A stretch of 64,000 nucleotides of DNA from a virus (IMGVR_UViG_3300001528_000208:32001-96000), one strand, 5' to 3'. Numbered from the stretch's first letter, positions 3-50,397 are shown. Numbers and translations: made by a program. The notes: generated by a model from the sequence alone, not told the origin.

Positions 3-3000
3 CCTGCAATTTTCAAGCTTATTCAAGCGGCGAAGGCGCTTGGTATTCCGCTAACAGAACTAATTCGATATTTGCTTAACGCTGCATCCGCTGGCGAAGA
101 ATTATCTAAGTCCGTTTCGCTTGAATCGCCTGCGGCACAGATTACCAAATTTAAAGATAAAGTAAAATCTGTCGTAGCAGCAGAAGAAGAACTTGCCGAA
201 ACAGGATATATTTCTGCTGATGCCGCTGAAGCGCTTGCAGAAGCATACACAGACGACGTTTATGACGCCATGGAATGGACAAGCAAGGGATATAAGGTAA
301 GCAAAGAAGCGCTTGAAGACCTTATTAAAGCACAGCGTATCGAATATGAACTTGCGCTTAACGATGCGCAAAATGCAGCCAATAAAATTGTAAACGCGAA
401 TATCGACGAAGCGGATTCGTATAACAAGAAAACACAGGCGATTCTTAATGCCATAAAGGCGAAGAAAGAAGATATCTACACGAGCATATTGGCTGGCGAA
501 CGCGGCTTCGAAGGTTGGGATCAGCTTGCGCTTCTTCGTATGTTACAAGATATTGAAGATGAAGTTGCGACCCTACAGTCGAATCTTGACAATTTTGATA
601 AGACTGTTGCTTATCTTCGCAAGACATCCACTTCTAAGAAGTCTAACGCCGAAACCGCCTACGAACGCGAAATCCGCCTGCTTGAACACGAACTGTATCT
701 TTCTGAACAGTTAGCCGACCTTTATAAAGGCGACAATGACGAAGCGAACTATCGCGCTGAAGTCAACAAGCAGATGGAAATTTACATCAAGCTGATGGAT
801 GCTGCCCACGCTGAAGCCGAACGACTTCGCAAACTTGGCTACGCCGAAACGTCCGAAGAAATTCAGAACTTGCAGCAGGCGTGGTGGGGCTATTACAACG
901 CCCGTCGCGACCTTGCGACCGGTCTTGCCGACTGGGAAAAGCAAACGACCGAAGACGCCCTTAACGACGTCAAGGACGCAATCAACGACCTTCTTGATGA
1001 AGCCGAAGACCGTTTGAACGACAAGCTGAAGTCACTTGAAGCCAAAATCGACAAAAATGAAGCCATCAAGAAGCTTCACGAAGTATTCTTCGGAATCCTG
1101 AATGATGTCGCTGATGGTATGCACGAAATCGACAAGGAACTTGAAGCTTCCCTGTCTTCCGCCGACTATCTTGACGAACAGCTTCGACAGGCGATGTTCA
1201 ACGAAGACGACTACAAGAAGATGTCGTCTGAACTTAACCGCATTGCTGATGAAAGCCGCACGCTGTTCAAGGACTATCTGAATCAGCTTGAAATGCTGAC
1301 GGAAGATGAAGTCTATAAGGCAGATTATATTACCAGCGAATTCGAACGTCAGTACAAGTACAAAGAACTTGAATACGACATCGCGCAGAAAGAACTGGAT
1401 TTGGCGAAGGCGCAGACCAAGCTTCAGAACACGCTGATGAACCGCAACGTCCGTATGTATAAGAACGGACAGTGGATTTGGACTGCGGATTATTCTGCCG
1501 TTCAGGAAGCGAAGAAAGAAGTTCGCGACGCCGAATACGAATATCGCGATGCTGAAATCAAGCTGAAGCAACAGGAAATCCTTGATAAGTATGCCAAGCT
1601 GATTGACGGCCTAAACTTGCAGAAGGATGCTGCGCAGGAAGAATTTGACCGCCTGAAAGACTACTGGGAAAAGGTTCAGAAGCAGTTAACCACCGAAGAA
1701 AGCGCAATGCAGCGTCTTCTAAAGGCGATTAACGGCACCGACATCCCGCAGTTCCGCGAAATTATCAATTCTGTTGGTAAGGGTCTTATCGACCTGATTA
1801 ACGGTCTTGGCACTGGTTCTGTGTATAATCCTGCTGGTGGCGCAGGCGGCTGGTCTTATGGTGCTGGTGGCACTATGGTCAGCGGAAGTGGCTATGTCTC
1901 AGGTTCTTCCGGTGGTAAAAACACCATCGGCGCAATCGGTGGTGGTGGCACTTCTGGCAGCTTAGTTCCCGCCTATTCTGGCGGTCAGCCGCACTACAGT
2001 GGTAGCTATGGTGACGATTATGTTGCGCCGCGCACTGATGGCTGGCAACCCGGCGAAACGCTTCCGGGTACAAGCGGCAATGCGCCTGCTGGTACGGAAT
2101 ACGACAAGTGGGTTCTTGCTAACGGTGAGCCGCCGAATCTTACCTATAAAGACACTGGTGTCTATGCAAAGGGCACTTCTCCGTCTATCAAGGGCGCAGA
2201 CATGAGTCGCGACAGCAAGTGGGCTGGTCAGACTGTTGAAAAGAATGGTTACGTTATCAGCTACGACGAACTTGGCTATGCCCGTAGTGCAATTAACGTT
2301 CGTGCTGGTTCGCGCAACGAAAATCTTGCGAACAAGTATCCGCGCGTTGATGCTGATGGTAACATCATGTATAGCAAGTCCGGTATGTGGTCGTCCAATA
2401 CTGGTCGTGGGTATTACTATTCCACTACTGACACGGCTGACGATACCATCTATTGGGATGAAAGCAATCCCAACTATGTTGGTGGAACGCCCAGCAGCGA
2501 CTCGAATCAGCGCCGTTACCTTGAAAACCTTGTTAAAACTGGTAACTATGGTCAACGCGAATGGGCAAAGGCGGAACTTGCCAAGATGGGCACGTCTTCT
2601 GGCGGAAGTTCGTCTTCCAGTTCTTCTGGCGGTGGTGGCGGTTCGTCTTCCAGCAGCAGTTCTTCGTCCAAGGGAAGTTCTTCCAGTTCGTCTTCCGATA
2701 GCGGGAAGTCCAATCAGCAGCGCTATCTGGAAAGTCTTGTTGAATCTGGCAACTACGGTCAGAAAGAATGGGCGAAAGACCAGCTTAACAAGGGCTTGTA
2801 CGATTCTGGTGGTATTCTGGATGGTGTTGGCGGCATCAAGGCGACTATGAAGGATGAAACCATCTTTGGCCCTGAACTGTCGTCTAAGTTGCTTTCCCCG
2901 CAGAAGTCTAAGGAATTCCTGAATTCTGCGACTGCACTTACCAAGATTCTTGATAATTCGTCTGCGCTTAGTTCGATGCTGAATCGTTTCGCTGGTCTTG

Positions 3001-3143
3001 TCAGCGGCAACAATTCTGTTGCGAACGACAGCCATGACGTCTACTTTAACGGCAATCCGCTTGGCGGAATGACGCGTGCCGATTCCGTTGCGCTGACTTC
3101 GATTCTGCGCAGATATATTCCGATTAGTGGAGGTGGAAGATAA
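3..3143 (+). CDS. Tape-measure-like tail protein, 5'-truncated by the window edge
   Basis: Frame is open from position 3. Long Ala/Glu/Lys helical region, Gly/Ser-rich C-terminal part, and a YDSGG motif near the end; lies directly upstream of tail genes. Confidence 0.7.
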   Translation, partial: PAIFKLIQAAKALGIPLTELIRYLLNAASAGEELSKSVSLESPAAQITKFKDKVKSVVAAEEELAETGYISADAAEALAEAYTDDVYDAMEWTSKGYKVSKEALEDLIKAQRIEYELALNDAQNAANKIVNANIDEADSYNKKTQAILNAIKAKKEDIYTSILAGERGFEGWDQLALLRMLQDIEDEVATLQSNLDNFDKTVAYLRKTSTSKKSNAETAYEREIRLLEHELYLSEQLADLYKGDNDEANYRAEVNKQMEIYIKLMDAAHAEAERLRKLGYAETSEEIQNLQQAWWGYYNARRDLATGLADWEKQTTEDALNDVKDAINDLLDEAEDRLNDKLKSLEAKIDKNEAIKKLHEVFFGILNDVADGMHEIDKELEASLSSADYLDEQLRQAMFNEDDYKKMSSELNRIADESRTLFKDYLNQLEMLTEDEVYKADYITSEFERQYKYKELEYDIAQKELDLAKAQTKLQNTLMNRNVRMYKNGQWIWTADYSAVQEAKKEVRDAEYEYRDAEIKLKQQEILDKYAKLIDGLNLQKDAAQEEFDRLKDYWEKVQKQLTTEESAMQRLLKAINGTDIPQFREIINSVGKGLIDLINGLGTGSVYNPAGGAGGWSYGAGGTMVSGSGYVSGSSGGKNTIGAIGGGGTSGSLVPAYSGGQPHYSGSYGDDYVAPRTDGWQPGETLPGTSGNAPAGTEYDKWVLANGEPPNLTYKDTGVYAKGTSPSIKGADMSRDSKWAGQTVEKNGYVISYDELGYARSAINVRAGSRNENLANKYPRVDADGNIMYSKSGMWSSNTGRGYYYSTTDTADDTIYWDESNPNYVGGTPSSDSNQRRYLENLVKTGNYGQREWAKAELAKMGTSSGGSSSSSSSGGGGGSSSSSSSSSKGSSSSSSSDSGKSNQQRYLESLVESGNYGQKEWAKDQLNKGLYDSGGILDGVGGIKATMKDETIFGPELSSKLLSPQKSKEFLNSATALTKILDNSSALSSMLNRFAGLVSGNNSVANDSHDVYFNGNPLGGMTRADSVALTSILRRYIPISGGGR

Positions 3144-5211: not shown

Positions 5212-6477
5212 ATGCCATTGGCGTTTCCTGACGATTATAGTGAATATCTTTCTCTGCTTAAGACTAACTGTAGATATGCCATCAAGCTTGAGTGGGTAAA
5301 CAACGATGGCACCGCCTATGCTGAAATCACAAGTTCGTATGTTGATATGTCGGGCACGCTTTCCGTTGGCATGGAAAATGGAACGCGTCGAACTGCCGAT
5401 ATCGAGCTTGACAATACGGATGGACAGTTCTCTGTTGACGTATATGGCATGTGGTATGGCAAAATGGTAAAGTTGTGGATGGGCGTATATCTGTCTGATG
5501 GTGAACCGTACTACTTCCCGCAGGGCGTGTTCTACGTCAATTCTGTTGAAGAAACAAATGCGCCAGCACAGCGAATCGTCACGTTGCATCTGATTGATAA
5601 GTGGTGCTTCCTTGACGGCACGATGTGGGGAAATCTTGACGGAATCTATATTGTGCCAGTCGGTTCCAACATCTACGACGCGCTGACAAAGTTGCTGAAG
5701 ACTTCGCGCTTCACTGGCGAAAACGTGGACGATAAGGGCGAACCGCAGACAAACGCCGTCGACCCGATTCAGCCCAACCTTGCGTCTTATTATATCACCA
5801 AGGAATATGAAGAAGCTGGGTCGAAATGGAAAGCAATCAACACACCGTATGAAATTCGTATGGAATACGGCAAGACGTATGCTGACGTGTTACTGGAATT
5901 CGCGACCATGCTTGGTGCATATATCTACTATGATGTTGACGGACGCCTGACGATTGAACCCACGCAGGATGATATTGTTGATAGTTCGAAGCCTATTCTG
6001 TGGACTTTCACGCCGAATGAACAGGAATTTCTATCGGAAGATTCAACGCACGACTTCGGAACATTCTATAACGACATTATCGTAATTGGGTATACCACCA
6101 ATGGCAAGCAGGCGAAGGGGCGTGCGCAAAACACGAATACTGCGTCGCCAACTGCAATTCCGATTGTTGGTATTAAGACGTATCCGCCCTACGAGGATAC
6201 CGCGTACTATACCGACGACCAGTGCAACGAACTTGCGCAATACTACTTGAAGCGCCAGACGATTAAGCAGCGTAGTGTTGTAATCACATCGGCGCCCATG
6301 TTCCATTTGCGTGAAAACCGCTTGATTGAATGTGTGCGTCCGTATACATCTAATAAAGAAGCGTTGCTGATTAGTGGTATAGACCTGCCGATTGGTTCGA
6401 CTGGAACAATGTCAATCACGGCGACTTCTGTAAATGAATTTGATTTTGGAGGTGCGGAATCCAGTGGAGAATCCTAA
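5212..6477 (+). CDS. Tail/baseplate hub-like protein
   Basis: RBS AAGGTGGTG; position in the tail module; YYDVDGRLTI-type motif. Confidence 0.55.
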   Translation: MPLAFPDDYSEYLSLLKTNCRYAIKLEWVNNDGTAYAEITSSYVDMSGTLSVGMENGTRRTADIELDNTDGQFSVDVYGMWYGKMVKLWMGVYLSDGEPYYFPQGVFYVNSVEETNAPAQRIVTLHLIDKWCFLDGTMWGNLDGIYIVPVGSNIYDALTKLLKTSRFTGENVDDKGEPQTNAVDPIQPNLASYYITKEYEEAGSKWKAINTPYEIRMEYGKTYADVLLEFATMLGAYIYYDVDGRLTIEPTQDDIVDSSKPILWTFTPNEQEFLSEDSTHDFGTFYNDIIVIGYTTNGKQAKGRAQNTNTASPTAIPIVGIKTYPPYEDTAYYTDDQCNELAQYYLKRQTIKQRSVVITSAPMFHLRENRLIECVRPYTSNKEALLISGIDLPIGSTGTMSITATSVNEFDFGGAESSGES

Positions 6478-6765: not shown

Positions 6766-7782
6766 ATGCCTATCTTTAATCAAGGTACTGGTGGCGGCGG
6801 CGCAAGCCTGTCGCCTATTATTGTTGTTTCTGCGCCGACCGGAAGCACTGTTACCTGCAAGAAGGGTTCTACCGTTCTGACTGCGGAAGAATCTTCTGGT
6901 ACTTGGTCGTTTGCTATTCCGGCATATGGCACGTGGACGGTAACTGGCATAAGTGCTGGAACTACTGTCGAAAAGACGGTTGAAGTGACTGCCATTGAAG
7001 TTTATTTCGTCGCACTTGAATTTATTCCAGCCGTTCTCAATAATGCGACATGGGCGCAGGTTAAGCAGGCGTCCGATTCTGGTGTTGCGTCCAACTATTG
7101 GTCTGTTGGTGATACCAAACAGATTACGATTAACGGCAAAGTGTCCGACGGTCTTACGCTGTCGAACTATTCCACCTATGTATATATTATCGGGTTTGAC
7201 CACAACAGTTCTGTCGAAGGAACCGGCATCGCCTTTGGCGGATTCAAGACTGCTGCGTCTGGTGGAACAGATGTTGCGCTTTGCGACAGCGGATACAACA
7301 CAAATAAAACCAGTGGTCAGTGGTTCAACATGAACAATGACAATAGTACAAGCGGCGGCTGGGCTTCCTGCAATATGCGTAACAATACTTTGCCGCTGGT
7401 CAAGGCTGCGATGCCAAGCGACTTGCAGTCTGTTCTTAAGACGACCACGATTTACACGGATAATATTGGCGGTTCGTCTACCGCCGCAAGCTATGTGACT
7501 GCCACGCAGGATGAATTATACCTTCTTGCCGAATGGGAAATCTTTGGTGCGCGCACATACGCCAACACTGCTGAACAGACGAAACAGCAGCAGTATGCCT
7601 ACTATGTCGCCGGTAATTCGAAGGTTAAATACCACCAAGATGGTGGTATTGCCGCGTATTGGTGGGAGCGTTCCGTGAATGCGACGAACTCCAACGCTTT
7701 CTGCCGTGTGAACTCCAACGGTGCTGCCGGCCGTAACAACGCTAATTTTTCGTATGGGTTGGCCTTGGCTTTCAAAATTTGA
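6766..7782 (+). CDS. DGR target protein, putative receptor-binding protein with a C-type-lectin-like (DUF6273-like) C-terminal domain
   Basis: C-terminal WWERS...FC.V...GLA.AF motif; the 3' end matches the TR except at TR adenines. Confidence 0.9.
   Translation: MPIFNQGTGGGGASLSPIIVVSAPTGSTVTCKKGSTVLTAEESSGTWSFAIPAYGTWTVTGISAGTTVEKTVEVTAIEVYFVALEFIPAVLNNATWAQVKQASDSGVASNYWSVGDTKQITINGKVSDGLTLSNYSTYVYIIGFDHNSSVEGTGIAFGGFKTAASGGTDVALCDSGYNTNKTSGQWFNMNNDNSTSGGWASCNMRNNTLPLVKAAMPSDLQSVLKTTTIYTDNIGGSSTAASYVTATQDELYLLAEWEIFGARTYANTAEQTKQQQYAYYVAGNSKVKYHQDGGIAAYWWERSVNATNSNAFCRVNSNGAAGRNNANFSYGLALAFKI
7649..7771 (+). repeat. DGR variable repeat (VR)
   Basis: Ungapped 123-bp match to 8440-8562. There are 14 mismatches in the 39-codon core plus one near the 3' edge, all opposite TR adenines. 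Confidence 0.95.
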
Positions 7783-8562: not shown

Positions 8563-8786
8563 CGATAGTATTGGGTTAATCAAAAACTTCTTGAAAGTTT
8601 TACGACCCTTATTAAAGGAGAAGCATTTCCCGTGAAGGTGTATTCCTTCCAAAACAACCCCGCGATACTGTTGCACGGACGCTTCTTGCATGGTCGAAAG
8701 GCAAATTCGATTTCATGTGTAACAGTTATGCAAGTAATCTATGCGGGATTGGTTATACCAAGTCTTGTACACGGGGTATTTTATTT

Positions 8787-9956
8787 ATGAATAGTGCGCA
8801 AAGACACGAATTTCGATATTATAGGCGTAAAGAAAAGCGTCTTTCGAAAAAGATTAAACGATGCGAAGCTATCGGTGGAATAGATGGTGTATTTACATTT
8901 GGCGATTTATATAAATGCGGCAAAGCGTGCTGTAATGGCGTTCGGTGGAAGCATAGTGTGCAAAATTTCGAAATGCACTTGTTTTCAACTACGGTTAAAT
9001 CGTTGGCTGACGTAAAGAACGATAAATGGGAAAGCAACGAATATTTCAGATTTGTTTTAACGGAACGTGGTAAAACACGCGATATTGATGCGCCCAAAAT
9101 TGTTGACAGGCAAATCCATAAAGCTATTACGCGAAACATTCTTTTGCCGTTATATACACCAATGATGATTTACAATAATGGGGCAAGTCAAAAAGGAAAG
9201 GGATTCCACTTTAGCTCAAATGAACTGAAGAAAGATTTGCGTGAACATTTTAGGAAGTATGGTCGTGAAGGTTGGATACTTCTAATTGATTTCAAGAAAT
9301 TTTTTCCAAACGCAAAACACGCAAATATATACAATAATCATGAAGAATTAATTTTTGATGAAAGATTGCGTAGATTGTGTGATTATGTTGTTGGATTTAA
9401 CAATAATTCTGGATTTGGTATGCCGCTTGGCGTAGAACCAAGTCAAGCGGAAATGATTTTCTTCCCATGGAAACTTGATTGCTATTTAACGTGCCAATGT
9501 GGATTTAGTGGATGCGGTCACTATATGGATGACTATTATATTATAATACCGCCAACGATGAATCCGCATGATGTTCGTGCGAAAGTATTATCTTTTGCCG
9601 AATCGCTTGGAATAAGAGTAAATCGCGATAAATCATACTTCGTTAAACTTACAAAATCGTTCCGATATTGTAAAATACGATATCGACTTACGGATACTGG
9701 TGCCGTTAAAACACTTGGTAGTAGACCTGCTTATAGGCGAGCTGCAAGGAAAATTCGTGCATTTAAACGCATGGTGGACGAAGGCAAAATGAAATATGAG
9801 GATGTCTACTGTTCTATGAATTCTATAATATCGTATTTCGATAATTTCGACGACAATAACCGTTCTTTTAGATTGAAACGATTGTTTGTTAAAACGTTTG
9901 GATTTAAATATGACGACCTAATGACATTTAGAAGGAGGGATTTCTATAATGTATAA
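8787..9956 (+). CDS. DGR reverse transcriptase (alternative start 8715)
   Basis: DFKKFF, GVEPSQ (DGR-type SQ) and YMDD motifs; adjacent to the TR and avd. Confidence 0.95.
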   Translation: MNSAQRHEFRYYRRKEKRLSKKIKRCEAIGGIDGVFTFGDLYKCGKACCNGVRWKHSVQNFEMHLFSTTVKSLADVKNDKWESNEYFRFVLTERGKTRDIDAPKIVDRQIHKAITRNILLPLYTPMMIYNNGASQKGKGFHFSSNELKKDLREHFRKYGREGWILLIDFKKFFPNAKHANIYNNHEELIFDERLRRLCDYVVGFNNNSGFGMPLGVEPSQAEMIFFPWKLDCYLTCQCGFSGCGHYMDDYYIIIPPTMNPHDVRAKVLSFAESLGIRVNRDKSYFVKLTKSFRYCKIRYRLTDTGAVKTLGSRPAYRRAARKIRAFKRMVDEGKMKYEDVYCSMNSIISYFDNFDDNNRSFRLKRLFVKTFGFKYDDLMTFRRRDFYNV

Positions 9957-20264: not shown

Positions 20265-21356
20265 ATGGTAAACAGGTTTAAGACGGAGATTTTTCCAGAC
20301 GAAAATCAGCACAAGTTATTCCTTTATTTTTGTAACGAATATAGGGAAATGTGGAACTATACGGTTGAAAAATTTCGGGACAATTATCCTATTGTTTACA
20401 AGAATGGAATTAAAGGATTCAAACCGTCTGATTTATTCAAGGAATCTAAGAACAAATGTTTGCAAAGAATAGCGGTTGGTGTTATAAAGAATTATGCCTT
20501 TGCAGTCAAAATGTTCAAGCTTGGTATTTGTAATAAGCCAAGATTTCATAAATATAACCCAAACAAACAATCATTCTATCTTGCGTGTCATAAGTTTGAA
20601 ATAACAAGACTTAGTGAAGATGAAGTGATTATTGGTAAAAATGGCGTTTTTCGATGGATTCGCCTTGACGTAGAAGTTATAAACAAATACGATATCAAAG
20701 AAATACGTGAACCAGTGTTTTCTTATGAAAATGGCAGGTGGTATATCAGTGGTGCGTATAGGGTTGAAGCTGCACCGCGTCAAGGTCGCACAGAATTCAT
20801 TGGTCTTGATTGGGGAATTAAGAATTTCATGACAACATCAGATGGTCAATTTATAAATTACCCGAAGTCTATAAAAAGGGAATATCAACGTGTCAAAGTT
20901 TTGCTTAAACATCTTAACAAAAAGCAAAAAGGTTCTCGAAATTATATTAAGATGATAAGAAAGTGCCATAAAGCGATTCGAAGAATTGAACATTTGAAGC
21001 ACAATTTTATAGAACAAGAAACGACAAGATTGTGTAGGCAAAACAATATTGCTGTTGAAAAATTTCCACCAACCACTTATAAAAGATTTAAATACGTTGA
21101 ACGTGTTGCACCACGCGGAAGATTTGTTGTAAGACTTGCGCGAAAATGCGAAAAGTTTGGCACCGAGTTTATGGCTGTTCCGCCGCAATATACAAGCAGG
21201 ATTTGTAGTTGCTGTGGTTTTCAAAAGAAAAGCCTTAAATTATCTGAACGTGTTTATAAGTGTGAAAACTGCGGAGTTGAAATTGACCGTGATGTAAATG
21301 CGGCGCGAAATATCGCCGCAATGGGTGTTCGCAGCATCCACAAGCCTATAGAATAG
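20265..21356 (+). CDS. tnpB: TnpB-family RNA-guided nuclease (no tnpA nearby)
   Basis: GLDWG, IAVE and TSRICSCCG...CENCG..DRDVNAA motifs; AT-richer than its flanks. Confidence 0.9.
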   Translation: MVNRFKTEIFPDENQHKLFLYFCNEYREMWNYTVEKFRDNYPIVYKNGIKGFKPSDLFKESKNKCLQRIAVGVIKNYAFAVKMFKLGICNKPRFHKYNPNKQSFYLACHKFEITRLSEDEVIIGKNGVFRWIRLDVEVINKYDIKEIREPVFSYENGRWYISGAYRVEAAPRQGRTEFIGLDWGIKNFMTTSDGQFINYPKSIKREYQRVKVLLKHLNKKQKGSRNYIKMIRKCHKAIRRIEHLKHNFIEQETTRLCRQNNIAVEKFPPTTYKRFKYVERVAPRGRFVVRLARKCEKFGTEFMAVPPQYTSRICSCCGFQKKSLKLSERVYKCENCGVEIDRDVNAARNIAAMGVRSIHKPIE

Positions 21357-21698: not shown

Positions 21699-24026
21699 TT
21701 GAATATTAGCATCAATCTGGACAAAGATTTTAGCGAAAAATTTAATGAACTGCGTGAAAAATATGGCGATGAAATTGCAAAGCTGAATGGATTTTCCGAC
21801 GAACAGCTTAGTTATACAGACTTCATTGATAACTTTGTTGATAAAAATACGGTGGCAGACGCCAGTATTGACGGCAATGCCAATGTTGGTGCAAAAGATA
21901 TTTGTTCGCTTGATAGCGAAATGAATAAGCCACATAGCAAGTTGCTGTCCTTCAACAAGGTCTATTACGAAATGAAGAAAAAGTATGGCAAGGATATTGC
22001 TGATAGATGGTTAGAATACGAGTGGATCGGAAAATTTTACGCTCACGATTCCCCAAGTTTGTCGCAGAAAAGTTATTGTTTTGCGTATGACCTTGAAGGT
22101 TTGGTAAGTAAGGGGCTATATTTTGTTCCTAATTTCAATGGTCAGCCGCCTAAGCATCTTGTAACATACACTGATTTCGTTGGTGAATTTGTTTCTTATG
22201 CAAGCAATCGTTCTTCTGGCGCTTGTGGACTTCCCAGCTTCCTTGTATATTCGTTCTACTTCTGGAAGAAAGACGTAAAAGATGGCTACTATACTGGTAC
22301 GCCTGAAAGATATCGCGACCAAGAGTTCCAAAGAATCACCTATAAGCTGAACCAGCCGTATTTGCGTGTTAATCAAAGCGCGTTTACAAACTTTTCTATT
22401 TTTGATAGACCGTATTTCGAATCGCTTTTTGGATACAAAACATTTCCTGATGGTGAATTCATGATTGACTATATTGATGAATTTATGGAATATCAGAAGG
22501 CATTTATGGAAGTTGTGTCAAAAATTCGCGAACAGAATATGATGACTTTCCCGGTGCTTTCATTTTGTCTTCTTCGTAAGAATGGAAAGTTTGTAGACGA
22601 AGATTTTGCGCGCTGGTGCTGTAAACACAACATGAAGTGGGCGGATTCCAACTTTTTCGTAAGCGAAGATGTCACATCCCTTTCAAACTGTTGTTTTAGC
22701 GGCAACACAATGTTTATGACGACTGATGGCATCAGAAGATTTGATTCTTTTAAAGACGGCGATTCCATTGTCGTTCCGTGCATCAATGGTTCCAACAATA
22801 ATGCAGTTGTCCATACTTATGGCGAACAAAGACTATTCCGCATCAAACTTTGCCGTAATGGAAAGCATAGAGATGTATTGACCACCAGAAATCACAGGTG
22901 GATTCTTGACGGAAATACGGAAACAAACTATCTTTCTGTTGGCGATGTGTTAGTTAAATCTGCGCATGATACAGATGATGGGAATTGGTCTGTTGTTGAT
23001 ATTGAAGATACTGGAATTGTAGAAACTGTTTGGTGTCTTGATGTCGAAAATGAACACAATTTCATTCTTGCGGACAACATTCCTTGTGGGAACTGCCGTC
23101 TTGTTTCTGATGTAAAGAATTTGGGCTATTTCAATTCTATTGGCGGGACCGCGCTTGAAGTCGGTTCTGTCAAGGTAAACACCATCAATCTTGCAAGAAT
23201 CGCCTATGAAACGAAATCTAAAGAAGATTATCTAAAGCAGCTTTCTGATGAAGTTGTTCTTTGCTTGCAGATGCTTGATGTGGTGCGCCACATTATCACG
23301 CGCAATATCGAAAAAGGACTTCTGCCGAATTATTCTTATGGTCTTATGCACATGAAGTCTCAGTACAATACCATCGGCATCGTCGCCCTTTATGAAACCT
23401 TACAGGAGTTTGGTATGACGCACAAGGATAAACTTGGCTATGCGCATTACACCGACGAAGGTATCGAATTTGCAAAAGATATTCTTCATACCATTAACAA
23501 GGTAAAAGATGAATTTGTTGCCGACAAGGATTATTCTGCGAATCTGGAGCAGATTCCCGCCGAACGGGCGGCAAGCATTCTGATGCAGAAAGATATGGTT
23601 TTCTTCCCTGATGAAGCATACGACCTTCCGCTATATGGCAACCAGTGGATTCCGCTTGGTGTAAAGACCACGCTTGAAGAAAAGTGCAAGCTTAGTGCGA
23701 TTCTTGATAAGGCGTGTAACGGTGGCAGTATTGCGCACATCAACATTGATGCACCGTTCAATAACTTTGACACGGCGTGGAATATGCTGAACTATGTCGC
23801 CGACAGTGGCGTCCCTTATTTCGCGTTCTGCACCAGAATTTCTGCCTGTGAAGAAAATCACGGATTCTATGGCGACAAGTGTCCTATTTGTGGCAAGCCG
23901 AAGGTTACGACTTATCAGCGCGTGGTTGGTTTCTTAACACCTGAAAAGACATATTCTAAGGAACGCAAGGCTGAATTTAAGATGCGCGACTGGTTTGACC
24001 TGAACGCAATCTGTGATACATTATGA
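21699..24026 (+). CDS. nrdD: Anaerobic (class III) ribonucleotide reductase containing a mini-intein
   Basis: YC, TFPV, SNC/CRL, EQIPAE, C-terminal Zn site and the RVVGF glycyl-radical loop. Confidence 0.92.
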   Translation: MNISINLDKDFSEKFNELREKYGDEIAKLNGFSDEQLSYTDFIDNFVDKNTVADASIDGNANVGAKDICSLDSEMNKPHSKLLSFNKVYYEMKKKYGKDIADRWLEYEWIGKFYAHDSPSLSQKSYCFAYDLEGLVSKGLYFVPNFNGQPPKHLVTYTDFVGEFVSYASNRSSGACGLPSFLVYSFYFWKKDVKDGYYTGTPERYRDQEFQRITYKLNQPYLRVNQSAFTNFSIFDRPYFESLFGYKTFPDGEFMIDYIDEFMEYQKAFMEVVSKIREQNMMTFPVLSFCLLRKNGKFVDEDFARWCCKHNMKWADSNFFVSEDVTSLSNCCFSGNTMFMTTDGIRRFDSFKDGDSIVVPCINGSNNNAVVHTYGEQRLFRIKLCRNGKHRDVLTTRNHRWILDGNTETNYLSVGDVLVKSAHDTDDGNWSVVDIEDTGIVETVWCLDVENEHNFILADNIPCGNCRLVSDVKNLGYFNSIGGTALEVGSVKVNTINLARIAYETKSKEDYLKQLSDEVVLCLQMLDVVRHIITRNIEKGLLPNYSYGLMHMKSQYNTIGIVALYETLQEFGMTHKDKLGYAHYTDEGIEFAKDILHTINKVKDEFVADKDYSANLEQIPAERAASILMQKDMVFFPDEAYDLPLYGNQWIPLGVKTTLEEKCKLSAILDKACNGGSIAHINIDAPFNNFDTAWNMLNYVADSGVPYFAFCTRISACEENHGFYGDKCPICGKPKVTTYQRVVGFLTPEKTYSKERKAEFKMRDWFDLNAICDTL
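22692..23093 (+). mobile_element. Mini-intein (134 aa, no endonuclease)
   Basis: Starts CFSGNT, block B TRNHRW, block F VWCLDV..EHNF, ends GN before the +1 Cys. Removal restores SNCCRL. Confidence 0.9.
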
Positions 24027-40571: not shown

Positions 40572-41808
40572 GATATCCGCTATGCTTTAGCATAGTCGGC
40601 AAAAGAAAGAGAACTATATCGGAAAGGAAGTGATTGTAGATATGTTGATTGCCTACAAATATAGAATGTATCCAAATGAAGAACAGAAAACTTATTTTTC
40701 AAAATGCTTCGGTTGCGTCAGATTTATCTACAATCGTATGCTTGCTGATAAAATCGAGTTTTACAATAAGACAAAACAAAACCTGAAAAATACGCCAGCC
40801 CAATATAAAGACGAATTTCCATGGCTTCGAGAAGTCGATGCGCAAGCGTTGTCAAATGCTCAGATGAATTTACGGACAGCGTACAACAACTTCTTCAAGC
40901 GACCAGAAGTTGGGTTCCCAAAATTCAAAAGTAAGAAAACGCGATATGATTCTTATACTACAAATCAAGCCAATATCCGCGTGACAGAACGACACATTAA
41001 CCTTCCGAAAATTGGACTTGTCAGGATTAAGAAACACAGGAATTTTTTTGGAACAATCAAACACGCTACCATTACAAGAACGCCATCGGGAAAATATTAT
41101 GTTTCGGTTCTTGTTGAACAAGAAGATATTCCAAAGAAAATTCCATGTGATTCTGAACTTGGAATAGATTTGGGAATCAAGGGGTTCGCAACCACTTCTG
41201 ATGGCAAAGTGATTGAAAATCCGAAATACTTGAAAAAATCAGAAAAGAAACTGCGGAAGTTGCAGAAAGACTTGTCTCGTTGTAAAAAAGGAAGTAAAAA
41301 TCGAGATAAATGTAGAATTAAAGTTGCACGTTGTCACGAGAAAATAACGAATCAACGCAAGGACTTTCTAAACAAACTTTCAAAAAGACTGATTGATGAA
41401 AACCAAGTCATATGTCTGGAAACATTGAAAGTTAAGAATATGATGAAAAATCATAAACTCGCTAAGTCTATTGCTGATGTATCATGGTCAGAATTTGTAC
41501 GACAACTGGAATACAAAGCAAACTGGTACGGAAGAGAAATTGTGAAAATTGATTCGTGGTATCCAAGTTCGCAGTTGTGTAGTAAATGCGGATACAAAAA
41601 TACAGAAATAAAGGATTTGTCTGTTAGAGAATGGGTGTGTCCGCAATGTGGAACTGTTCACGATAGAGACATTAACGCTGCAATAAATATTCTTAATGAA
41701 GGATTGAGAATAAGAACCGTAGGAACTACGGGGATAGCCTAAGTAAACTTGTCTCGTTAGAGATATTGATTAGGAAGCACCGGTGCTTTATCATCGTGTG
41801 TAGTTCAC
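40572..41808 (+). mobile_element. IS200/IS605-family (IS1341-like, tnpB-only) element; boundaries approximate
   Basis: Subterminal hairpins share a TGCTTTA core (40580-40595, 41781-41796). The right end reads GTAGTTCAC, and an omega-RNA-like 3' region overlaps the tnpB end. Confidence 0.7.
40630..41742 (+). CDS. tnpB: TnpB RNA-guided nuclease
   Basis: [29 protein letters not shown] and [11 protein letters not shown] motifs. Confidence 0.95.
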
Positions 41809-44946: not shown

Positions 44947-45160
44947 GTGGCTTGATAGGAAGGGCGACCGCACGTTCGTAGGTAATGCTGATAACGTAGA
45001 CCAAGCGTTGGACATGATTGGCGACTGGTGTAAAGAACACGATTTTCAGTCGTTCTATGTGCGGTGGTGCGAATTTTCAGACCATTATTGGTTCGATTAC
45101 GGATCGCACACCTGCTTCTTTGAACTTGCAAAAGGTCTTGACAAAGCGCAAGTTGTGTGA
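44936..45160 (+). CDS. Hypothetical protein, C-terminus AQVV
   Basis: DYGSHT.FF motif. Confidence 0.65.
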   Translation: MRLEWLDRKGDRTFVGNADNVDQALDMIGDWCKEHDFQSFYVRWCEFSDHYWFDYGSHTCFFELAKGLDKAQVV

Positions 45161-45166
45161 TATTAT
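45138..45166 (+). promoter_or_regulatory. SigA-type promoter of ncRNA-1
   Basis: TTGACA-17-TGATATTAT. Confidence 0.8.
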
Positions 45167-45180
45167 AATGTCATAGCACA

Positions 45181-45452
45181 AATCGGCGTGTGTTTGGTGG
45201 AATAGCTGGTGACACCTAAAATAACCCAGCGACCAGCCTGAAAGGGCATTGACACTGGCGCGTTCCAAGGGGCGCGTTAAGCCAAAACCGGTATTTTGTG
45301 GCAACAAACAAGGGTTTCCTCCGGTATATAAGGTGGTGCGAAATCATCCCATCTAAAATTACTATACTGATGGGCATTGTTGCGAACGGCAATAGCGGAT
45401 ACGGATGTTTGATGGGGCGTCAAGCCGTATAGCGATTAAACCCCTGCCGATT
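45181..45452 (+). ncRNA. Putative structured ncRNA-1 (~275 nt), family not recognised
   Basis: Own promoter; terminal helix AATCGGCG../..TGCCGATT; several internal hairpins; module shared with ncRNA-2. Confidence 0.7.
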
Positions 45453-45472
45453 CTATTTTTTAGGTGGTCAAT

Positions 45473-45763
45473 ATGGCTAAGAAATTTTTTGCATCATTCG
45501 AATCAGTTCCAAACGATTTCGCCGCAGCTAAACTGCGCCTTGGCGAATTTGGTGTGATTCGCGCCAATGGTAATCGCTACAACGTCCTGCCCGTTAAGGA
45601 CAAGACGCCGCTGGATGTTGGCGACAGCGTGTTTACCCGCGCTGGTGGCAATTATGGCATCTACGATATTATTGCGATTGACGACCGCTGGTTTTCTGTT
45701 GGCAAAGGCGACAAGAAAAAGGGTCGCGTTGTGCGTGCTGATATCTATGGGAAGGTGGTCTAA
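45473..45763 (+). CDS. Hypothetical protein, C-terminus GKVV
   Basis: RBS AGGTGG. Confidence 0.65.
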   Translation: MAKKFFASFESVPNDFAAAKLRLGEFGVIRANGNRYNVLPVKDKTPLDVGDSVFTRAGGNYGIYDIIAIDDRWFSVGKGDKKKGRVVRADIYGKVV

Positions 45764-45975
45764 TGAGAAACTATCCAGCTAAGGTTGGCGACCTGCTAAA
45801 ATATGGTTCGACCATATATCGCGTTGTTGGCGTGAATGAATATGGGCGTGTCGATGTGCGACGTGCGTATGTGTTTTCAGGCAAAAATCCTGTTAAAAGC
45901 GATGGTGAACTTATACCAGATATTACTGTAACTGCTTTTGACCGTCGGTTTTTCATTTCTGCGAAGGTGATATAA
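45763..45975 (+). CDS. Small SH3/KOW-like protein, C-terminus AKVI
   Basis: KVGDLL...IYRV; paralog of the next gene. Confidence 0.7.
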   Translation: MRNYPAKVGDLLKYGSTIYRVVGVNEYGRVDVRRAYVFSGKNPVKSDGELIPDITVTAFDRRFFISAKVI

Positions 45976-46199
45976 TGACAAGGGGATATAAACCTAAAGT
46001 CGGACATTTCTTGTGGTATTGTGGTCACATATACCGCATCTTAAAGGTACATGACGACAACAACCATGTTGACGTTCTGCATCATAGTTATAAGACTGTC
46101 GCTGGAAATTTCGTAAAGGTAAGCGATGATGTTCCACTGACATATATAACAGCAGATTCTTTTGAAAAGCGATTTATTCCGTCAGCAAGGGTGGTTTGA
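45975..46199 (+). CDS. Small SH3/KOW-like protein, C-terminus ARVV
   Basis: KVGHFL...IYRI. Confidence 0.7.
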   Translation: MTRGYKPKVGHFLWYCGHIYRILKVHDDNNHVDVLHHSYKTVAGNFVKVSDDVPLTYITADSFEKRFIPSARVV

Positions 46200-46201
46200 C
46201 T

Positions 46202-46408
46202 ATGAAATTCAGGGTTGGTCAGCTTGTTTGGTGCAATACCACCGGACAGTATGTTCAGACGGATTATCACGTCAAGTGTATTGTAACGAACGTTTTAAGA
46301 AACGACTACATTACCGTGCGTATTACCGAAGGAAGATACGCTGGAAACGAATGGGATGTCGAAACCATTTTCTTTGAACTGGTGCAAAACCGCGCAAAAA
46401 TTATCTAA
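46202..46408 (+). CDS. Small SH3/KOW-like protein, C-terminus AKII
   Basis: FRVGQLVWC...TDYHVKC.V; close paralog of 43486. Confidence 0.7.
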   Translation: MKFRVGQLVWCNTTGQYVQTDYHVKCIVTNVLRNDYITVRITEGRYAGNEWDVETIFFELVQNRAKII

Positions 46409-46425
46409 GCAATAAGGAGTACAAC

Positions 46426-46974
46426 ATGAAAGACATCAAGAAGCTTTTCCTTTGGATGTGCGTCTGCTGGACGTTTATTTCTACTGTCATGCCACTTTTG
46501 GCACCAGTAGAAGAAGAACCTGTTAAAGTGCTGGTGCGAACAGAATTGTTTCACCACACTGATTATGTAGAAGTCTACGTCGAACCGACGCCATATTTCT
46601 TTGTGACGTCAACCGAACGCGAAATGCTGGCACGTCTATTATGGACGGAAGCGCGTGGTGAATCCATGGAATGTCAGCGCGCCGTTGTAAGCGTAGTGTT
46701 TAATCGCGTGAAGTCCGACGATTTCCCCAACAGCATCGAAGAAGTTGTCAAGCAGAATAGTGGTGGCGTTCCACAGTTTGATTTAGGCAATAAACTTGGA
46801 AATGTGACACCGAATGAAATGCAATACGAGGCGGTGGATTATGTCATTTGTAATGGATGCACAGTGCCTGATTGGGTGTGCTATTTCCGCAGTCGCCATC
46901 ATTTTAATTGGCGAGGGTACACACCTTATGCGCAAATTGATAGGACATATTTCGGCGGTTACGAATGGGCTTGA
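46426..46974 (+). CDS. SleB-like cell wall hydrolase (Hydrolase_2) with an N-terminal signal/anchor
   Basis: LARLLWTEARGE...V.NRV.S..FPNSI..V..Q. Confidence 0.88.
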   Translation: MKDIKKLFLWMCVCWTFISTVMPLLAPVEEEPVKVLVRTELFHHTDYVEVYVEPTPYFFVTSTEREMLARLLWTEARGESMECQRAVVSVVFNRVKSDDFPNSIEEVVKQNSGGVPQFDLGNKLGNVTPNEMQYEAVDYVICNGCTVPDWVCYFRSRHHFNWRGYTPYAQIDRTYFGGYEWA

Positions 46975-47041
46975 CAAAATATAAACAGCGTGCTATTATA
47001 TATAATACAGCGGCAAACCCGCTTATTGAGGAGGACGAAAA

Positions 47042-47269
47042 ATGAAAAAGGACTGTTTCGGCTGTAACGGCATGGGCGGATGTTCCGTTCTTTCTGGCGA
47101 TCCAACTTGTGATGTGTGCCATTTCTATGCGACACGCGAACAGGTTGATGCGGCAAGGGCGGATGCAGACGCAAGGCTTGACGCCAAGGGTCTACGCAGA
47201 ACGATTGTGGTGCGCAACGATGTGCAAATCATGACCGTTGTTCCGATTAAGAAGGAGGTGCTGGCATGA
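47042..47269 (+). CDS. Small Cys-rich protein
   Basis: Downstream of a promoter at 46971; DCFG...C.VL...C..C.FY.T. Confidence 0.7.
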   Translation: MKKDCFGCNGMGGCSVLSGDPTCDVCHFYATREQVDAARADADARLDAKGLRRTIVVRNDVQIMTVVPIKKEVLA

Positions 47270-47841
47270 TTTCGTATCGCGGAACTGAACCCGATATCAA
47301 GATGTCACAGGCGGTGTACAATGAACTGCGCAAATATGCAGTTGCCAGTTCGACGAGGATGATGGCTATTTTCCTGAAGATTGACAAGGACGGTAGCACA
47401 TATCGCGTTAAGGAAATCTATATTCCCGAACAGAACTGTAACACGGCGCATTGCATTATTGCAGATGCGGAACTTCGTAAGCTGGGTGCAGAATATATCG
47501 GTCTTTGTCGCACTGGTCATGGCACAAAGCTTGACTTTTCAAAAGACGATGTTGAACTGTTTGACAAGTCTTTCCTTGGCGTGGAAGATTACGTCTGTAT
47601 GAATTTCACGCTGGGTGGCAATATGTCGGCAGACATTGTTGTTGGCGACCTGACCTTTGAAGATGTTCGCATCATGGTGATGCCGGAGTTCAAGAAGGAA
47701 GAACTGGATGCTGCGCGGGATTATGTCGATGATCGTGTCAAGGATTGGACGTATAAGGATGGCTATACTGCCCGTGAACGCGGTAATTATGTCCCGACGC
47801 CGCTATTGACCGAACGCATCGGTTGGCGGGACGTTGTTTGA
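47266..47841 (+). CDS. Hypothetical protein, possibly a degenerate JAB/MPN fold
   Basis: V.EIYIPEQ...IG....H....FS..D pattern lacking the canonical HSH. Confidence 0.4.
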   Translation: MISYRGTEPDIKMSQAVYNELRKYAVASSTRMMAIFLKIDKDGSTYRVKEIYIPEQNCNTAHCIIADAELRKLGAEYIGLCRTGHGTKLDFSKDDVELFDKSFLGVEDYVCMNFTLGGNMSADIVVGDLTFEDVRIMVMPEFKKEELDAARDYVDDRVKDWTYKDGYTARERGNYVPTPLLTERIGWRDVV

Positions 47842-47860
47842 AGGAAGGTTGTGAAATGGA

Positions 47861-48043
47861 TTGGCGTTTAAGGGTGAAAAGATTGTCCATTCGCCACGAA
47901 TGTGCGAATATTTGTTGGCGCATGGCGGAAAGCTGTTAAAAACAAAGCGCGACCTGAAAGATGTAACAAGAAAAATCTACATATTCGACGAAAAATCCAT
48001 CAATGGGATTATCGGCGGGTATAAGAAAGAAGGAGTACGATGA
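47861..48043 (+). CDS. Small hypothetical protein
   Basis: YLL..G.......D.......IF pattern. Confidence 0.5.
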   Translation: MAFKGEKIVHSPRMCEYLLAHGGKLLKTKRDLKDVTRKIYIFDEKSINGIIGGYKKEGVR

Positions 48044-49017
48044 ACAAGGAAGGTTTTAAGAAACTTTGTCTGCCGGTCAAAGAAGATTTGCTTGCGTGGC
48101 TTTATCAGCAGTTAAGCGAATATTATGGGCTGGCGAACACGGTCAACGGTGGCGACTATCTGTTTTTCAGCGGCAACTGCCCGACAATGCTTTGTGCGCA
48201 TCTTGATACGGTGCATAAGCGTCAGCCGACCAAGATTGTCGATGATGGTAACAAGGTAAGTTCGCCCATGGGAATTGGCGGTGACGACCGCTGTGGCGTC
48301 TATTCCGTTCTTGCTGTGTTGAAGGCAACGGAAGAAAGCGGCAAGCGTCCGTATCTGTTTTTCAGCACGGATGAAGAAGTCGGCGGCGCGTCTACGAAGC
48401 GTGCGGCGCAGGATATCAAGGGTCGTGTAGCTGGCGTCGGCTACATGATTCAGATTGACCGTCGTGGCAAGCAGGATTCGGTCTATTATAAGTGCGACAA
48501 CAAGCAGTTCAAGAAGTTCATTGACGAACACGGCTTTGTCGAAGCAAGCGGTTCGTTTACGGACATCTGCAATTTGTCACCCGTGTTTGACCTTGCAAGT
48601 GTCAATCTGTCGTGCGGCTATTATAGCGAACATCATCCCGAAGAGTATGTTATCTATACAGAATTGCAGGATACAATCGACAAGGTGGTGCAGATTATCG
48701 CCGACACCAAGGACGACATTATCTATCCGTATTGTGAAGCGAAGCCGAAGCCAACGCAGAATTACTATGGCAATAAAGGGTCGCACTTTTGGTCGAAATA
48801 CTATACGAAGGGTGACGAAGTTTTCACGAAGTACGGTTCCAGCGCCGTCTACAAGAAGCCGAATTACAGCAACCCAATTTCTGGCGTATATCTGCCCGCT
48901 TATCATTCGTTCATTGTGCTGGACGTCAAGGATGATTTTATCCAGATTGAATACAATGGCGAAAAAGTGTGGTCTACGTCTTGGAATTTTCAGCCTGACT
49001 ACGACAGCCTGTATTGA
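48040..49017 (+). CDS. M28/M20-type zinc peptidase with a C-terminal SH3-like extension
   Basis: AHLDTVH, GGDDRCG, DEEVGG, DRRG, GSFTD and GYY.EH motifs. Confidence 0.85.
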   Translation: MNKEGFKKLCLPVKEDLLAWLYQQLSEYYGLANTVNGGDYLFFSGNCPTMLCAHLDTVHKRQPTKIVDDGNKVSSPMGIGGDDRCGVYSVLAVLKATEESGKRPYLFFSTDEEVGGASTKRAAQDIKGRVAGVGYMIQIDRRGKQDSVYYKCDNKQFKKFIDEHGFVEASGSFTDICNLSPVFDLASVNLSCGYYSEHHPEEYVIYTELQDTIDKVVQIIADTKDDIIYPYCEAKPKPTQNYYGNKGSHFWSKYYTKGDEVFTKYGSSAVYKKPNYSNPISGVYLPAYHSFIVLDVKDDFIQIEYNGEKVWSTSWNFQPDYDSLY

Positions 49018-49042
49018 CAAAAACCAAAACGTGTGATATTAT
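49014..49042 (+). promoter_or_regulatory. SigA-type promoter of ncRNA-2
   Basis: TTGACA-17-TGATATTAT; overlaps the peptidase stop. Confidence 0.8.
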
Positions 49043-49050
49043 AATGGCAA

Positions 49051-49500
49051 CGGTTGAAACGTAGGCTTAGAAGCAGCCATCGTCTAAGGAGTTTATCGCG
49101 GGGCGAGTCTTGACGGTCTTTGTGCCGTGGGAAGTATCTGCTATTGCAATCATATAGAATGATATTTCTTGACCGCCTATGATTGCCGTGGATAATTTGG
49201 CGTAGTAGCACATCAACCGCATGGTGGAATGGCGGGTGACACCTAAAATAACCTCGCCACCATATCCCACAAGTTCCGCAATCGGGGCAGAGTGTAAAAT
49301 GCGAAAGCACACTTGGAAGGAAAGCCGTGGGATTAACAGCGCCCATTGAAATCCGTGCGAATATTATTAACATGGTAGAATCGCCTATCTGCAACGCCGC
49401 CACAACAACGTGGATGGCTATGCGTTAGGGCTACCGGCTAAACCGTCATTTCAAGACGGTAAGGATTAGCTGTTGCGAACCGCGAAAGTGGGATAGCGGG
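49051..49500 (+). ncRNA. Putative structured ncRNA-2 (~450 nt) with a 23S rRNA GTPase-centre-like domain
   Basis: GTAGGCTTAGAAGCAGCCATCGTCTAAGGAGT...GGCGTAGTAGCACA closed by CGGTTGA/TCAACCG. Lies between two promoters with no credible ORF. Confidence 0.75.
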
Positions 49501-49506
49501 AAGCAC

Positions 49507-49535
49507 TTGACAAAATGTAAAGTGTGTGTTATTAT
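49507..49535 (+). promoter_or_regulatory. SigA-type promoter of tRNA-Glu
   Basis: TTGACA-17-TGTTATTAT. Confidence 0.8.
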
Positions 49536-49552
49536 AATAACATAAAGCAAAT

Positions 49553-49628
49553 GGCCCCGTGGTCAAGTGGTCTAAGACTCCGCCCTTTCAAGGCGGCAAC
49601 GGCAGTCCGAATCTGCTCGGGGCTACCA
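49553..49628 (+). tRNA. tRNA-Glu(TTC)
   Basis: Acceptor GGCCCCG/CGGGGCT, anticodon arm CCGCC-CTTTCAA-GGCGG, T-loop TCCGAAT, encoded CCA. Confidence 0.92.
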
Positions 49629-49780
49629 GATTGTGAAATTCAAGCGGCGAAAGCCAAGCCACCGTTACAGCCGGTATTGACAAAATCCAAAATGTGTGCT
49701 ATATTATTATCATGGTGTGAACAGGTTGGTCGCCTGTGAACATAAATTCAAAATTTTGAAAGTAAGAAAGGAAAAAGACT

Positions 49781-50217: not shown

Positions 50218-50293
50218 GGCGCACTCGTCTAAAGTTAGGATGCCGCCTTCTCACGGCGGAGATAGAAGTTGCAATTCCTTCTGTGCGTCACCA
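50218..50293 (+). tRNA. tRNA-Glu(CTC), atypical T-arm
   Basis: Acceptor GGCGCAC/GTGCGTC, anticodon arm CCGCC-TTCTCAC-GGCGG, encoded CCA, terminator immediately downstream. Confidence 0.82.
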
Positions 50294-50397
50294 AGGCGTA
50301 GAAATACGCCTTTTTCTATGGGTGTTGACAAAAACAAAATATAGTGCTATTATAATAGCATAGGCAAGCAAAACATAAAACATTAAAACGGAGGTCT

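Follow-up and report, generated by a model that had tools for sequence, protein, structure and literature searches.

We analysed a 64,000-nucleotide (nt) stretch of phage DNA (IMGVR_UViG_3300001528_000208; bases 32001-96000 of a 104.8-kb IMG/VR virus record), referred to here as the window, in which a 41-nt module occurs twice, once in each of two units that we named RNA A and RNA B. Judging from base changes among its relatives, the module very probably folds into an H-type pseudoknot followed by an unpaired ACCA. We propose, with a rough probability of 0.5, that it is a minimal surrogate of the tRNA acceptor end which is used interchangeably with tRNAs, and its helical stack, discriminator A and CCA would then reproduce the business end of a tRNA.

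Relatives and fold of the 41-nt module

Both 41-mers are present on the + strand exactly as quoted in a first-pass annotation of the window (Table 1). Their 19-nt core, GGTGACACCTAAAATAACC, occurs exactly twice in the window, and none of 100 dinucleotide shuffles gave any match at ≤3 mismatches. Exact-pattern scans recovered the module from one sister phage only in IMG/VR (L001, L002) and from nine metagenome contigs of the same ~107-kb lineage. Further contigs (L061-L064, L067-L069, L076-L078 and L081-L083) were reached via homologues of a peptidase-like gene just 5' of RNA B, at 95-46% protein identity. The resulting alignment, A4, comprises 14 distinct module sequences, and a fifteenth was found in L083. 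The core and a GGAAT "bulge" had been described as invariant, which holds inside this genome but not in the sister phages, where the changes U9C, A20G, C22U, A24U, U28C and C31U occur. A proposed search with a covariance model (CM) found exactly two copies per genome and nothing else convincing; the copies invariably stand behind promoters and on the strand that is transcribed. The wider databases were scanned by exact pattern. Three further IMG/VR pattern matches (L006, L074 and L075) lie within coding DNA and were discarded as chance, as were all 16 matches in a pattern scan of 185,579 reference genomes, in which no prophage copy was found; blastn of a phage collection gave no match. Rfam 15, searched at gathering thresholds and at E ≤ 10 with large and small scan windows, holds no family for the module or for the downstream A- and B-cores, and returned only tRNA, RT-2 and local large-subunit rRNA (LSU) matches. 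In L019, the two module copies (L019:1253-1293 and L019:6362-6402) have an identical stem 2 (AGUCGG/CCGACC) and a different stem 1, a pattern that suggests gene conversion between paralogous copies.

With the module numbered 1-41, pairs were counted across the 14 distinct variants. The first-pass annotation had proposed a bulged hairpin with a covarying inner stem and a basal stem, UGGU/ACCA. The inner stem was borne out: bases 11-15 and 32-36 (stem 2) are paired in every variant, the window copies carrying GCUGG/CCAGC and GCGGG/CCUCGC and other variants GUCGG/CCGAC. Pair 12-35 is UA in eight variants and CG in six, and pair 13-34 is CG in eight, UA in five and GC in one. The basal stem (1-4/38-41), on the other hand, is broken in 5 of the 14 variants, with 13 unpaired cells and zero compensatory changes. 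In those five, bases 1-4 read AAGC, UGGC or AGGC and ACCA is unchanged; because bases 1-4 vary without compensation while ACCA stays constant, this stem is unsupported.

Instead, bases 2-5 pair with bases 19-22 of the hairpin loop in 14/14 variants (stem 1). Pairs G3-C21 and G5-C19 are constant, pair 2-22 is GC in 11 variants and AU in three, and pair 4-20 is UA in nine and CG in five; the two switches are independent of each other (UGGC/GCC and AGGC/GCC versus AAGC/GCU), giving stem 1 two doubly compensated pairs. When the partners of stem 1 were slid by 1-3 columns, pairing fell to 25-45%. Both stems are thus 100% paired, with four pairs changed on both sides, and the strands succeed one another (2-5, 11-15, 19-22, 32-36) as in a classical H-type pseudoknot. 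Loop 1 reads G-A-A-U/C-R, loop 2 U-G-A, and loop 3 is A-rich (UAAAAUAAC). All four letters occur at base 37, which in 7 of the 14 variants pairs with R10 and so extends stem 2; the ACCA after it (38-41) never varies and lacks a conserved pairing partner. Folding of single sequences was uninformative because the z-scores were unremarkable (-0.39 and -1.22).

G-U pairs are kept at 14-33 in the copy of RNA B and at 10-37 in three variants, which argues for selection on the + strand RNA and not on DNA. The possibility that the motif is a strand-independent DNA operator lacking covariation, raised by the first-pass annotation as the counter-case, is therefore disfavoured: the covariation is real and the module is strand-specific at the RNA level. 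More broadly, an operator, a site of recombination or attachment, or a 3' remnant of a tRNA gene could account for the exactly two copies per genome, their location next to promoters and tRNA genes, the tRNA-gene-like end and the apparent gene conversion in L019. However, two crossing helices are kept by compensation, among them G-U pairs, whose counterparts on the opposite strand would be C-A; the module lies downstream of promoters and not over them, is not palindromic as operators are, and has no counterpart of the 7-nt acceptor strand of a tRNA 3' fragment. We regard any such DNA-level role as extremely improbable.

A double T-loop module is defined by six core residues, AGNNA...UGNNA, whose near-invariance results from the two stacked base triples that they form (PMC3664808). 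The first-pass annotation had suggested that the GGAAUA bulge and UAAAAUA loop of its bulged hairpin might form interdigitated T-loops of this kind and thereby a tRNA-binding platform; in the L1 stalk, in T-box Stem I and in RNase P, such platforms stack on the elbow of tRNA. The signature is absent from the module: GGAAU(A/G) starts with G and ends with A in seven variants and with G in seven, and UAAAA has an A where the double T-loop has an invariant G. The UGNNA-like pentads at 4-8 (UGGAA) and 16-20 (UGACA) are U-closed, and their closing bases vary, U4 being C in 5/14 variants and A20 being G in 5/14. The trans Watson-Crick/Hoogsteen closure of interdigitated loops is likewise missing, as U4/A20 change to C/G, and G2/C22 to A/U, together; U4 and A20 covary as a Watson-Crick pair, and therefore neither can close its own T-loop. 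There is a superficial likeness, in that the L1 stalk of Escherichia coli (GUAGGAUAGGUGG and UUGAAAUACCACC) and the module (GUGGAAUAGCUGG and CUAAAAUAACCCAGC) each have a 5-bp connecting helix; the module, too, has a purine-rich 5' "bulge" and an A-rich distal segment split by a helix of ~5 bp, and RNA B also carries another rRNA mimic (see below). Yet the basal helix is unsupported, T-box and LSU models gave no match on the module (Rfam, small scan windows), and local alignment of the module, the A-core and the B-core with E. coli 23S (including the L1 stalk), 16S and 5S rRNA stayed at chance level, with only the other mimic standing out. Membership of the double T-loop family was accordingly rejected, since the six-residue core is absent and a pseudoknot stem joins the candidate closing bases to one another, and a tRNA-binding platform of this kind is very improbable. 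The module looks like a tRNA end rather than a platform that binds one, as it ends in ACCA and replaces tRNA.

Interchange with tRNAs and a possible processing role

The module is found ahead of three unrelated RNA cores and one short leader. It stands 5' of the A-core in the window, L002, L014, L019, L027, L039 and L044, and 5' of the B-core in the window, L001, L019, L039, L067 and L083. A C-core unrelated to either comes after it in L062 and L068, and in L067 nothing but a GNRA hairpin does, making a leader of ~115 nt. Its start lies within ~5-10 nt of the predicted transcription start in L002, L027, L019-B, L039-B, L083 and L067. This placement and the Bacillota-like host type would suit a cap, in which the knot blocks 5'-to-3' decay (RNase J1-type) or shields a processed 3' end and so prolongs the life of the non-coding RNA (ncRNA); decay by 5' exonucleases is important in Bacillota. 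Such a function is nevertheless improbable, as the module is internal, behind a 170-nt domain, in RNA B of the window and in L062, and a stabiliser needs no invariant single-stranded ACCA. Replacement by tRNAs further speaks for recognition specific to tRNA, although a tRNA, too, is a stable 5' block.

This replacement is seen in the slot that the module occupies in RNA A. The best-conserved part of the A-core, the hairpin GGCGYGUUCYAYGGGGCRCG, has an ACCA 7-21 nt upstream in every relative, and the element before that ACCA is the pseudoknot in five phages (the window, L002, L019, L039 and L044). In L068 the slot holds a canonical tRNA-Met(CAU) (L068:3058-3133, called by ARAGORN; Rfam tRNA 59.1 bits), and tRNA-Ile(UAU)-type cloverleaves with an odd T loop stand there in L061 (1892-1965, ARAGORN) and L078 (522-592, 54.9 bits), with a decayed copy of this type in L082. 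L062 has a 92-nt multibranch element (ACCA included) closed by an 8-bp stem, and in a relative at 53% identity the slot contains tRNA-Leu and tRNA-Pro ahead of the same small open reading frames (ORFs). Because both occupy the RNA A slot before the A-core hairpin, the pseudoknot with its ACCA is positionally interchangeable with a tRNA and its ACCA, and the phages' own tRNAs mostly end in an encoded A-CCA. The fold, the partnerless invariant ACCA, the modularity and the equivalence with tRNAs in this slot are directly supported. The likeness to tRNA is confined to the end of the molecule: the 41-nt module has no analogues of the T, D or anticodon arms of the remaining L-shape, Rfam RF00005 (tRNA) matches neither copy, and no tRNA or Tymo_tRNA-like match covers the module.

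Bacterial RNase P cuts a 33-nt H-type pseudoknot in loop 1, at N9/N10, provided that the pseudoknot carries a 3' RCCA tail (Kosek et al. 2025, PMC12710915). Cleavage of this model pseudoknot depends on the RCCA interaction and is fastest with U at N-1, and the tRNA-like pseudoknot of turnip yellow mosaic virus (TYMV) is also an RNase P substrate (PMC12710915). We propose RNase P and a tRNA surrogate here because U9, the purine at 10, a stem 2 starting from 10/11 and the A-CCA match the model substrate; base 9 is U in 13 of the 14 variants and lies just 5' of R10, the putative +1 base. The phage would string RNA modules into promoter-driven, terminator-less transcripts in which the module stands in for a tRNA gene, and a terminator scan found no intrinsic terminator between the promoter of RNA B and 50293. 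Host tRNA-end machinery would recognise the module, RNase P would cut loop 1 after U9, and 3' trimming would halt at the CCA; in the phage's own genome we found no CCA-adding enzyme (PF01743) or RNA ligase (PF09414). These steps would cut free an upstream domain of RNA B described below and set the 5' end of the downstream A-, B- or C-core, and the next tRNA would set the 3' side of the core. The module thus probably punctuates multi-module transcripts. We infer every enzymatic step, whether by RNase P or by CCA-end enzymes, as well as the fate of the processed pieces, and we are less confident of cleavage by RNase P than of mimicry of the tRNA end.

Several observations weigh against a tRNA surrogate. 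The ACCA is internal to a DNA-encoded primary transcript, and an extra base, N37, lies between it and stem 2 and pairs with R10 in half of the variants. The stacked stems reach ~10-11 bp, with the 3-nt loop 2 between them, and are shorter than the 12-bp acceptor/T arm; the module also offers no T-loop to the specificity domain of RNase P. Model pseudoknots were cleaved slowly, at very high Mg2+ and without the protein subunit (PMC12710915). Replacement by a true tRNA is seen in the RNA A slot only and not before the B- or C-core. Further, the variants all belong to a single narrow lineage of phages, whose neighbouring protein is ≥78% identical, and common descent could account for part of the loop invariance. 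Loops 1 and 3 are moreover conserved beyond the apparent needs of a processing signal, which hints at an extra specific partner.

Binding of such a partner, be it a phage or host protein or, as with an aptamer, a small molecule, might by itself explain the pseudoknot, with the loops and ACCA as the contact surface and the attached RNA being tethered or regulated. Loops 1, 2 and 3 are almost invariant while both stems covary, as is usual for a binding pocket; the module is portable between unrelated cores; and preQ1-I-type pseudoknots have a similar A-rich loop 3 and arrange their elements in a similar order. We consider this explanation unlikely, though, as no Rfam 15 riboswitch (preQ1-I included) or protein-binding family matched at E ≤ 10 in windows of 311 nt and 471 nt, RNA B has no downstream gene to regulate, the module of RNA A lies ~240 nt from the ribosome-binding site, and the true tRNAs in the same slot would be left unexplained.

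A ribosomal mimic and the other parts of the locus

The 5' domain of RNA B mimics the GTPase-associated centre (GAC) of 23S rRNA. The bacterial LSU model is matched by nucleotides 49059-49097 over its positions 1098-1143, which cover helix 43 (H43) and the GAC junction (small search, E = 0.0017; per genome, 23 bits and E = 2.1e-6). This match is the only one of its kind in the phage, and 26/30 positions are identical to E. coli 23S rRNA 1058-1088. The H43 hairpin with its conserved UUAGAAGCA loop, the adjoining junction and a closing stem like helix 42 (H42) are all present, and among four homologues the closing stem and the H43 stem show one compensatory change each. A segment like helix 44 (H44), GGCGUAGUAGCACA, has its best 23S match at 1090-1103, the helix 44 loop (11/14), which is weakly significant, as 46/500 shuffles equal it against the whole 23S. 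Compared with the 23S GAC (H42-H44, E. coli 1051-1108), the phage domain has an exact H43 loop, the junction, a closing stem in place of H42 and a putative H44-like piece, GCGUAGUAGC, but it is free-standing, split by a ~105-nt insert and degenerate in its H44 part. In L077 (L077:2092-2257) the domain occurs alone as its own promoter-driven RNA, and a further copy lies in L062 (L062:7021-7189). The first-pass annotation was right in sensing ribosomal mimicry in RNA B, but the mimicry resides in another part of the RNA and concerns another ribosomal site. Together, the pseudoknot-ACCA and the GAC mimic might form an off-ribosome decoy of a stalled ribosome (the uL11 stalk base plus the CCA of an uncharged tRNA), which would trap or mis-trigger a host factor such as Rel/RelA, the stringent factor, or a defence toxin that acts by modifying the GAC or the CCA ends of tRNAs. 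We hold this to be distinctly improbable; if true, abortive infection or the stringent response would be blunted.

Table 1 Features of RNA A, RNA B and the adjoining tRNA elements (positions counted from the first base of the window).
Feature	Position	Strand	Details
Promoter of RNA A	45138..45166	+	TTGACA, 17 nt, TG-extended TATTAT; 11/12 matches with TG; kept in sister phages
Optional 22-nt 5' leader of RNA A, AUAGCACAAAUCGGCGUGUGUU	45173..45194	+	Present in L019, L039, L044; absent from L002, L027
Module copy A (very probable pseudoknot)	45195..45235	+	Stem 1 45196-45199 with 45213-45216; stem 2 45205-45209 with 45226-45230; variable base 45231; invariant ACCA 45232-45235; CM R1 67.6 bits
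GNRA hairpin GCCUGAAAGGGC	45236..45247	+	Directly after ACCA; compensatory GCCC/GGGC, ACCC/GGGU in sister phages
A-core	45257..45399	+	Hairpin GGCGCGUUCCAAGGGGCGCG (45257-45276), further helices, motif UGUUGCGAAC...AUAGCGG (45378-45398)
Second H-type pseudoknot, 3' end of RNA A	45400..45444	+	ACGG 45401-04/CCGU 45425-28; GGGG 45414-17/CCCC 45441-44
Promoter of RNA B	49014..49042	+	Found by promoter scan
GAC-mimic 5' domain of RNA B	49050..49219	+	Closing stem CGGUUGA/UCAACCG; H43 copy 49059-49097; ~105-nt insert; H44-like segment ~49198-49211
Module copy B (very probable pseudoknot)	49222..49262	+	Same pseudoknot with C-ACCA; G14-U33 wobble; CM R1 64.2 bits
B-core	49263..49506	+	Variable hairpin, then ~190-nt structured core ending UGUUGCGAAC-(GNRA hairpin)-AUAGCGG
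Next promoter and tRNA-Glu(UUC)	49507..49628	+	tRNA ends in encoded A-CCA
Weak tRNA-like element	50219..50293	+	Rfam tRNA 29.8 bits; CUC anticodon-type loop; UUGCAAU replaces normal T loop; ends ACCA

RNA A (~45173-45470, + strand) is followed by a small ORF starting at 45473, and RNA B (~49049-49506, + strand) by the promoter of the tRNA-Glu at 49553-49628, which the B-core abuts without a terminator. Both module copies lie within stretches that lack credible ORFs, each right behind a strong promoter of the form TTGACA-17-TGnTATTAT, with a near-consensus extended -10. The two RNAs share a 3' motif, as had been noted (TGTTGCGAAC at 45378 and 49471; ATAGCGG at 45392 and 49493), and do not align beyond shared blocks. 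The suggestion that they form one RNA family is therefore loosely true at most: modules are shared, but the cores differ. The 5' leader of RNA A is, by eye, similar to the GAC-mimic domain at its 3' end. The A-core is conserved with compensatory changes in L002, L019, L039, L044, L062, L061, L068 and L078, and among five homologues the B-core has 43 consensus pairs with 97% of cells paired and five pairs changed on both sides. As RNAalifold gave partly implausible 5' pairings for the GAC-mimic domain and RNA A, explicit pair counts were used instead.

The second pseudoknot, just 5' of the Shine-Dalgarno (SD) sequence and ATG at 45473, is unrelated to the 41-nt module. Both of its stems covary in L039, L014, L061, L068 and L078, its loops are conserved (AUGUUUG, GUCAAG and AUAGCGAUNAAA), and it persists in L076 (~1385-1435), a relative at 46% identity, where it stands ahead of a tRNA-Ser. 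No other RNA module of the locus is conserved as widely, and Rfam has no match for it.

Two other functions were considered and dropped. An HDV-like "theta" ribozyme that trims tRNA 3' ends was discounted for the A-core because Rfam gave no HDV-type match and few theta-adjacent tRNAs encode CCA (only 4.5% of tRNAs adjoining published theta ribozymes; PMC10879173). The ACCA as an anti-SD strand for the downstream GGUGGUC was set aside because base 37 does not track the SD (by eye).

Further downstream of RNA B, the weak tRNA-like element received no ARAGORN call, is conserved in L077 and is directly followed by an intrinsic terminator (50293-50312). A spacer module, GUGAAAUYCAA-(hairpin)-CGUUAYAGYCGGU, lies at 49631-49676 of the window and also in L019 (~6850-6890), L067 (~6210-6255), L062 (~3097-3138) and L068 (~2992-3052). 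It either follows the CCA of tRNA-Glu directly or immediately precedes the element of RNA A that is a tRNA or resembles one, and is possibly another processing cassette. On the 3' side of RNA A, four successive small ORFs (45473-46408; ~70-96 aa) look like diverged paralogues and match no Pfam family; in more distant relatives (L081) this cluster is found behind plain tRNA genes. L061 carries a third TnpB copy (L061:2482-3630) inserted directly behind the RNA A-linked ORF.

Genes for Pol III alpha, DnaB, a reverse transcriptase, an anaerobic ribonucleotide reductase and two TnpB proteins are present in the phage, which is a gut phage of Clostridia type. The nearest relatives of its polymerase belong to a human faecal phage and to large phages of Clostridioides and Bacillus. 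Given this gene set and these nearest polymerase relatives, the host is probably an anaerobic member of the Bacillota. An RT-2 RNA motif (RF03077, 104.7 bits; window 8571-9956) overlaps the start of the 413-aa reverse transcriptase ORF (RVT_1), the two TnpB genes (IS605 OrfB/Cas12f-like) lie at 20265-21356 and 40630-41742, and the NrdD gene of the ribonucleotide reductase (21699-24026) has an apparent intein-type insertion.

Implications and comparison with known systems

If the module is indeed a tRNA surrogate, a double-stranded DNA phage has pared a tRNA down to a 41-nt knot in which just the features read by tRNA-end machinery are left. Pseudoknotted acceptor mimics were previously known from plant RNA viruses and engineered RNase P substrates, and the phage would add a natural example from a bacterial virus and a ready minimal substrate for studies of RNase P and CCA-end recognition. 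The lineage assembles its ncRNAs from swappable modules, namely the GAC mimic, tRNA-like ends, several cores and the second pseudoknot, none of which is in Rfam 15; this points to phage-host interaction having a layer that is based on RNA and directed at the translation apparatus. In annotation, slots of this kind would be tRNA-equivalent processing sites and not "intergenic" DNA.

The closest parallel to the putative cleavage site is the RNase P model substrate, a biotin-aptamer pseudoknot (pPK) with a GCCAC tail (PMC12710915). Its helix 2 starts from residue 10 and U9 is best, and the phage module likewise has U9, R10 and A-CCA; the model substrate, however, is synthetic and was cleaved in vitro at high Mg2+, and the loop 1 segment before its site is 2 nt long versus 4 nt in the phage module.

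The acceptor pseudoknot of TYMV shares the strand order a-b-a'-b', in which an upstream strand pairs with a hairpin loop and an unpaired A-CCA follows, and also the U that precedes the RNase P site (putative in the phage module). The two have no sequence similarity, and Rfam gave no Tymo_tRNA-like match. TYMV has a full tRNA shape at the true 3' end of an RNA genome and is aminoacylated, whereas the phage module is the knot alone, internal to a primary transcript of a double-stranded DNA phage, with longer loops (5, 3 and 9 nt) and an extra variable base before ACCA.

Elsewhere, tRNAs and tRNA-like folds within longer transcripts act as cut sites that release their neighbours, as in the tRNA punctuation of mitochondria and in MALAT1/mascRNA, and phage T4 produces species 1 and 2 RNAs, stable RNAs of unknown function, amid its tRNA cluster. 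In the phage described here, the punctuation mark would be a 41-nt pseudoknot and not a cloverleaf, and the RNAs that it would release, the GAC mimic and the A-, B- and C-cores, are new.

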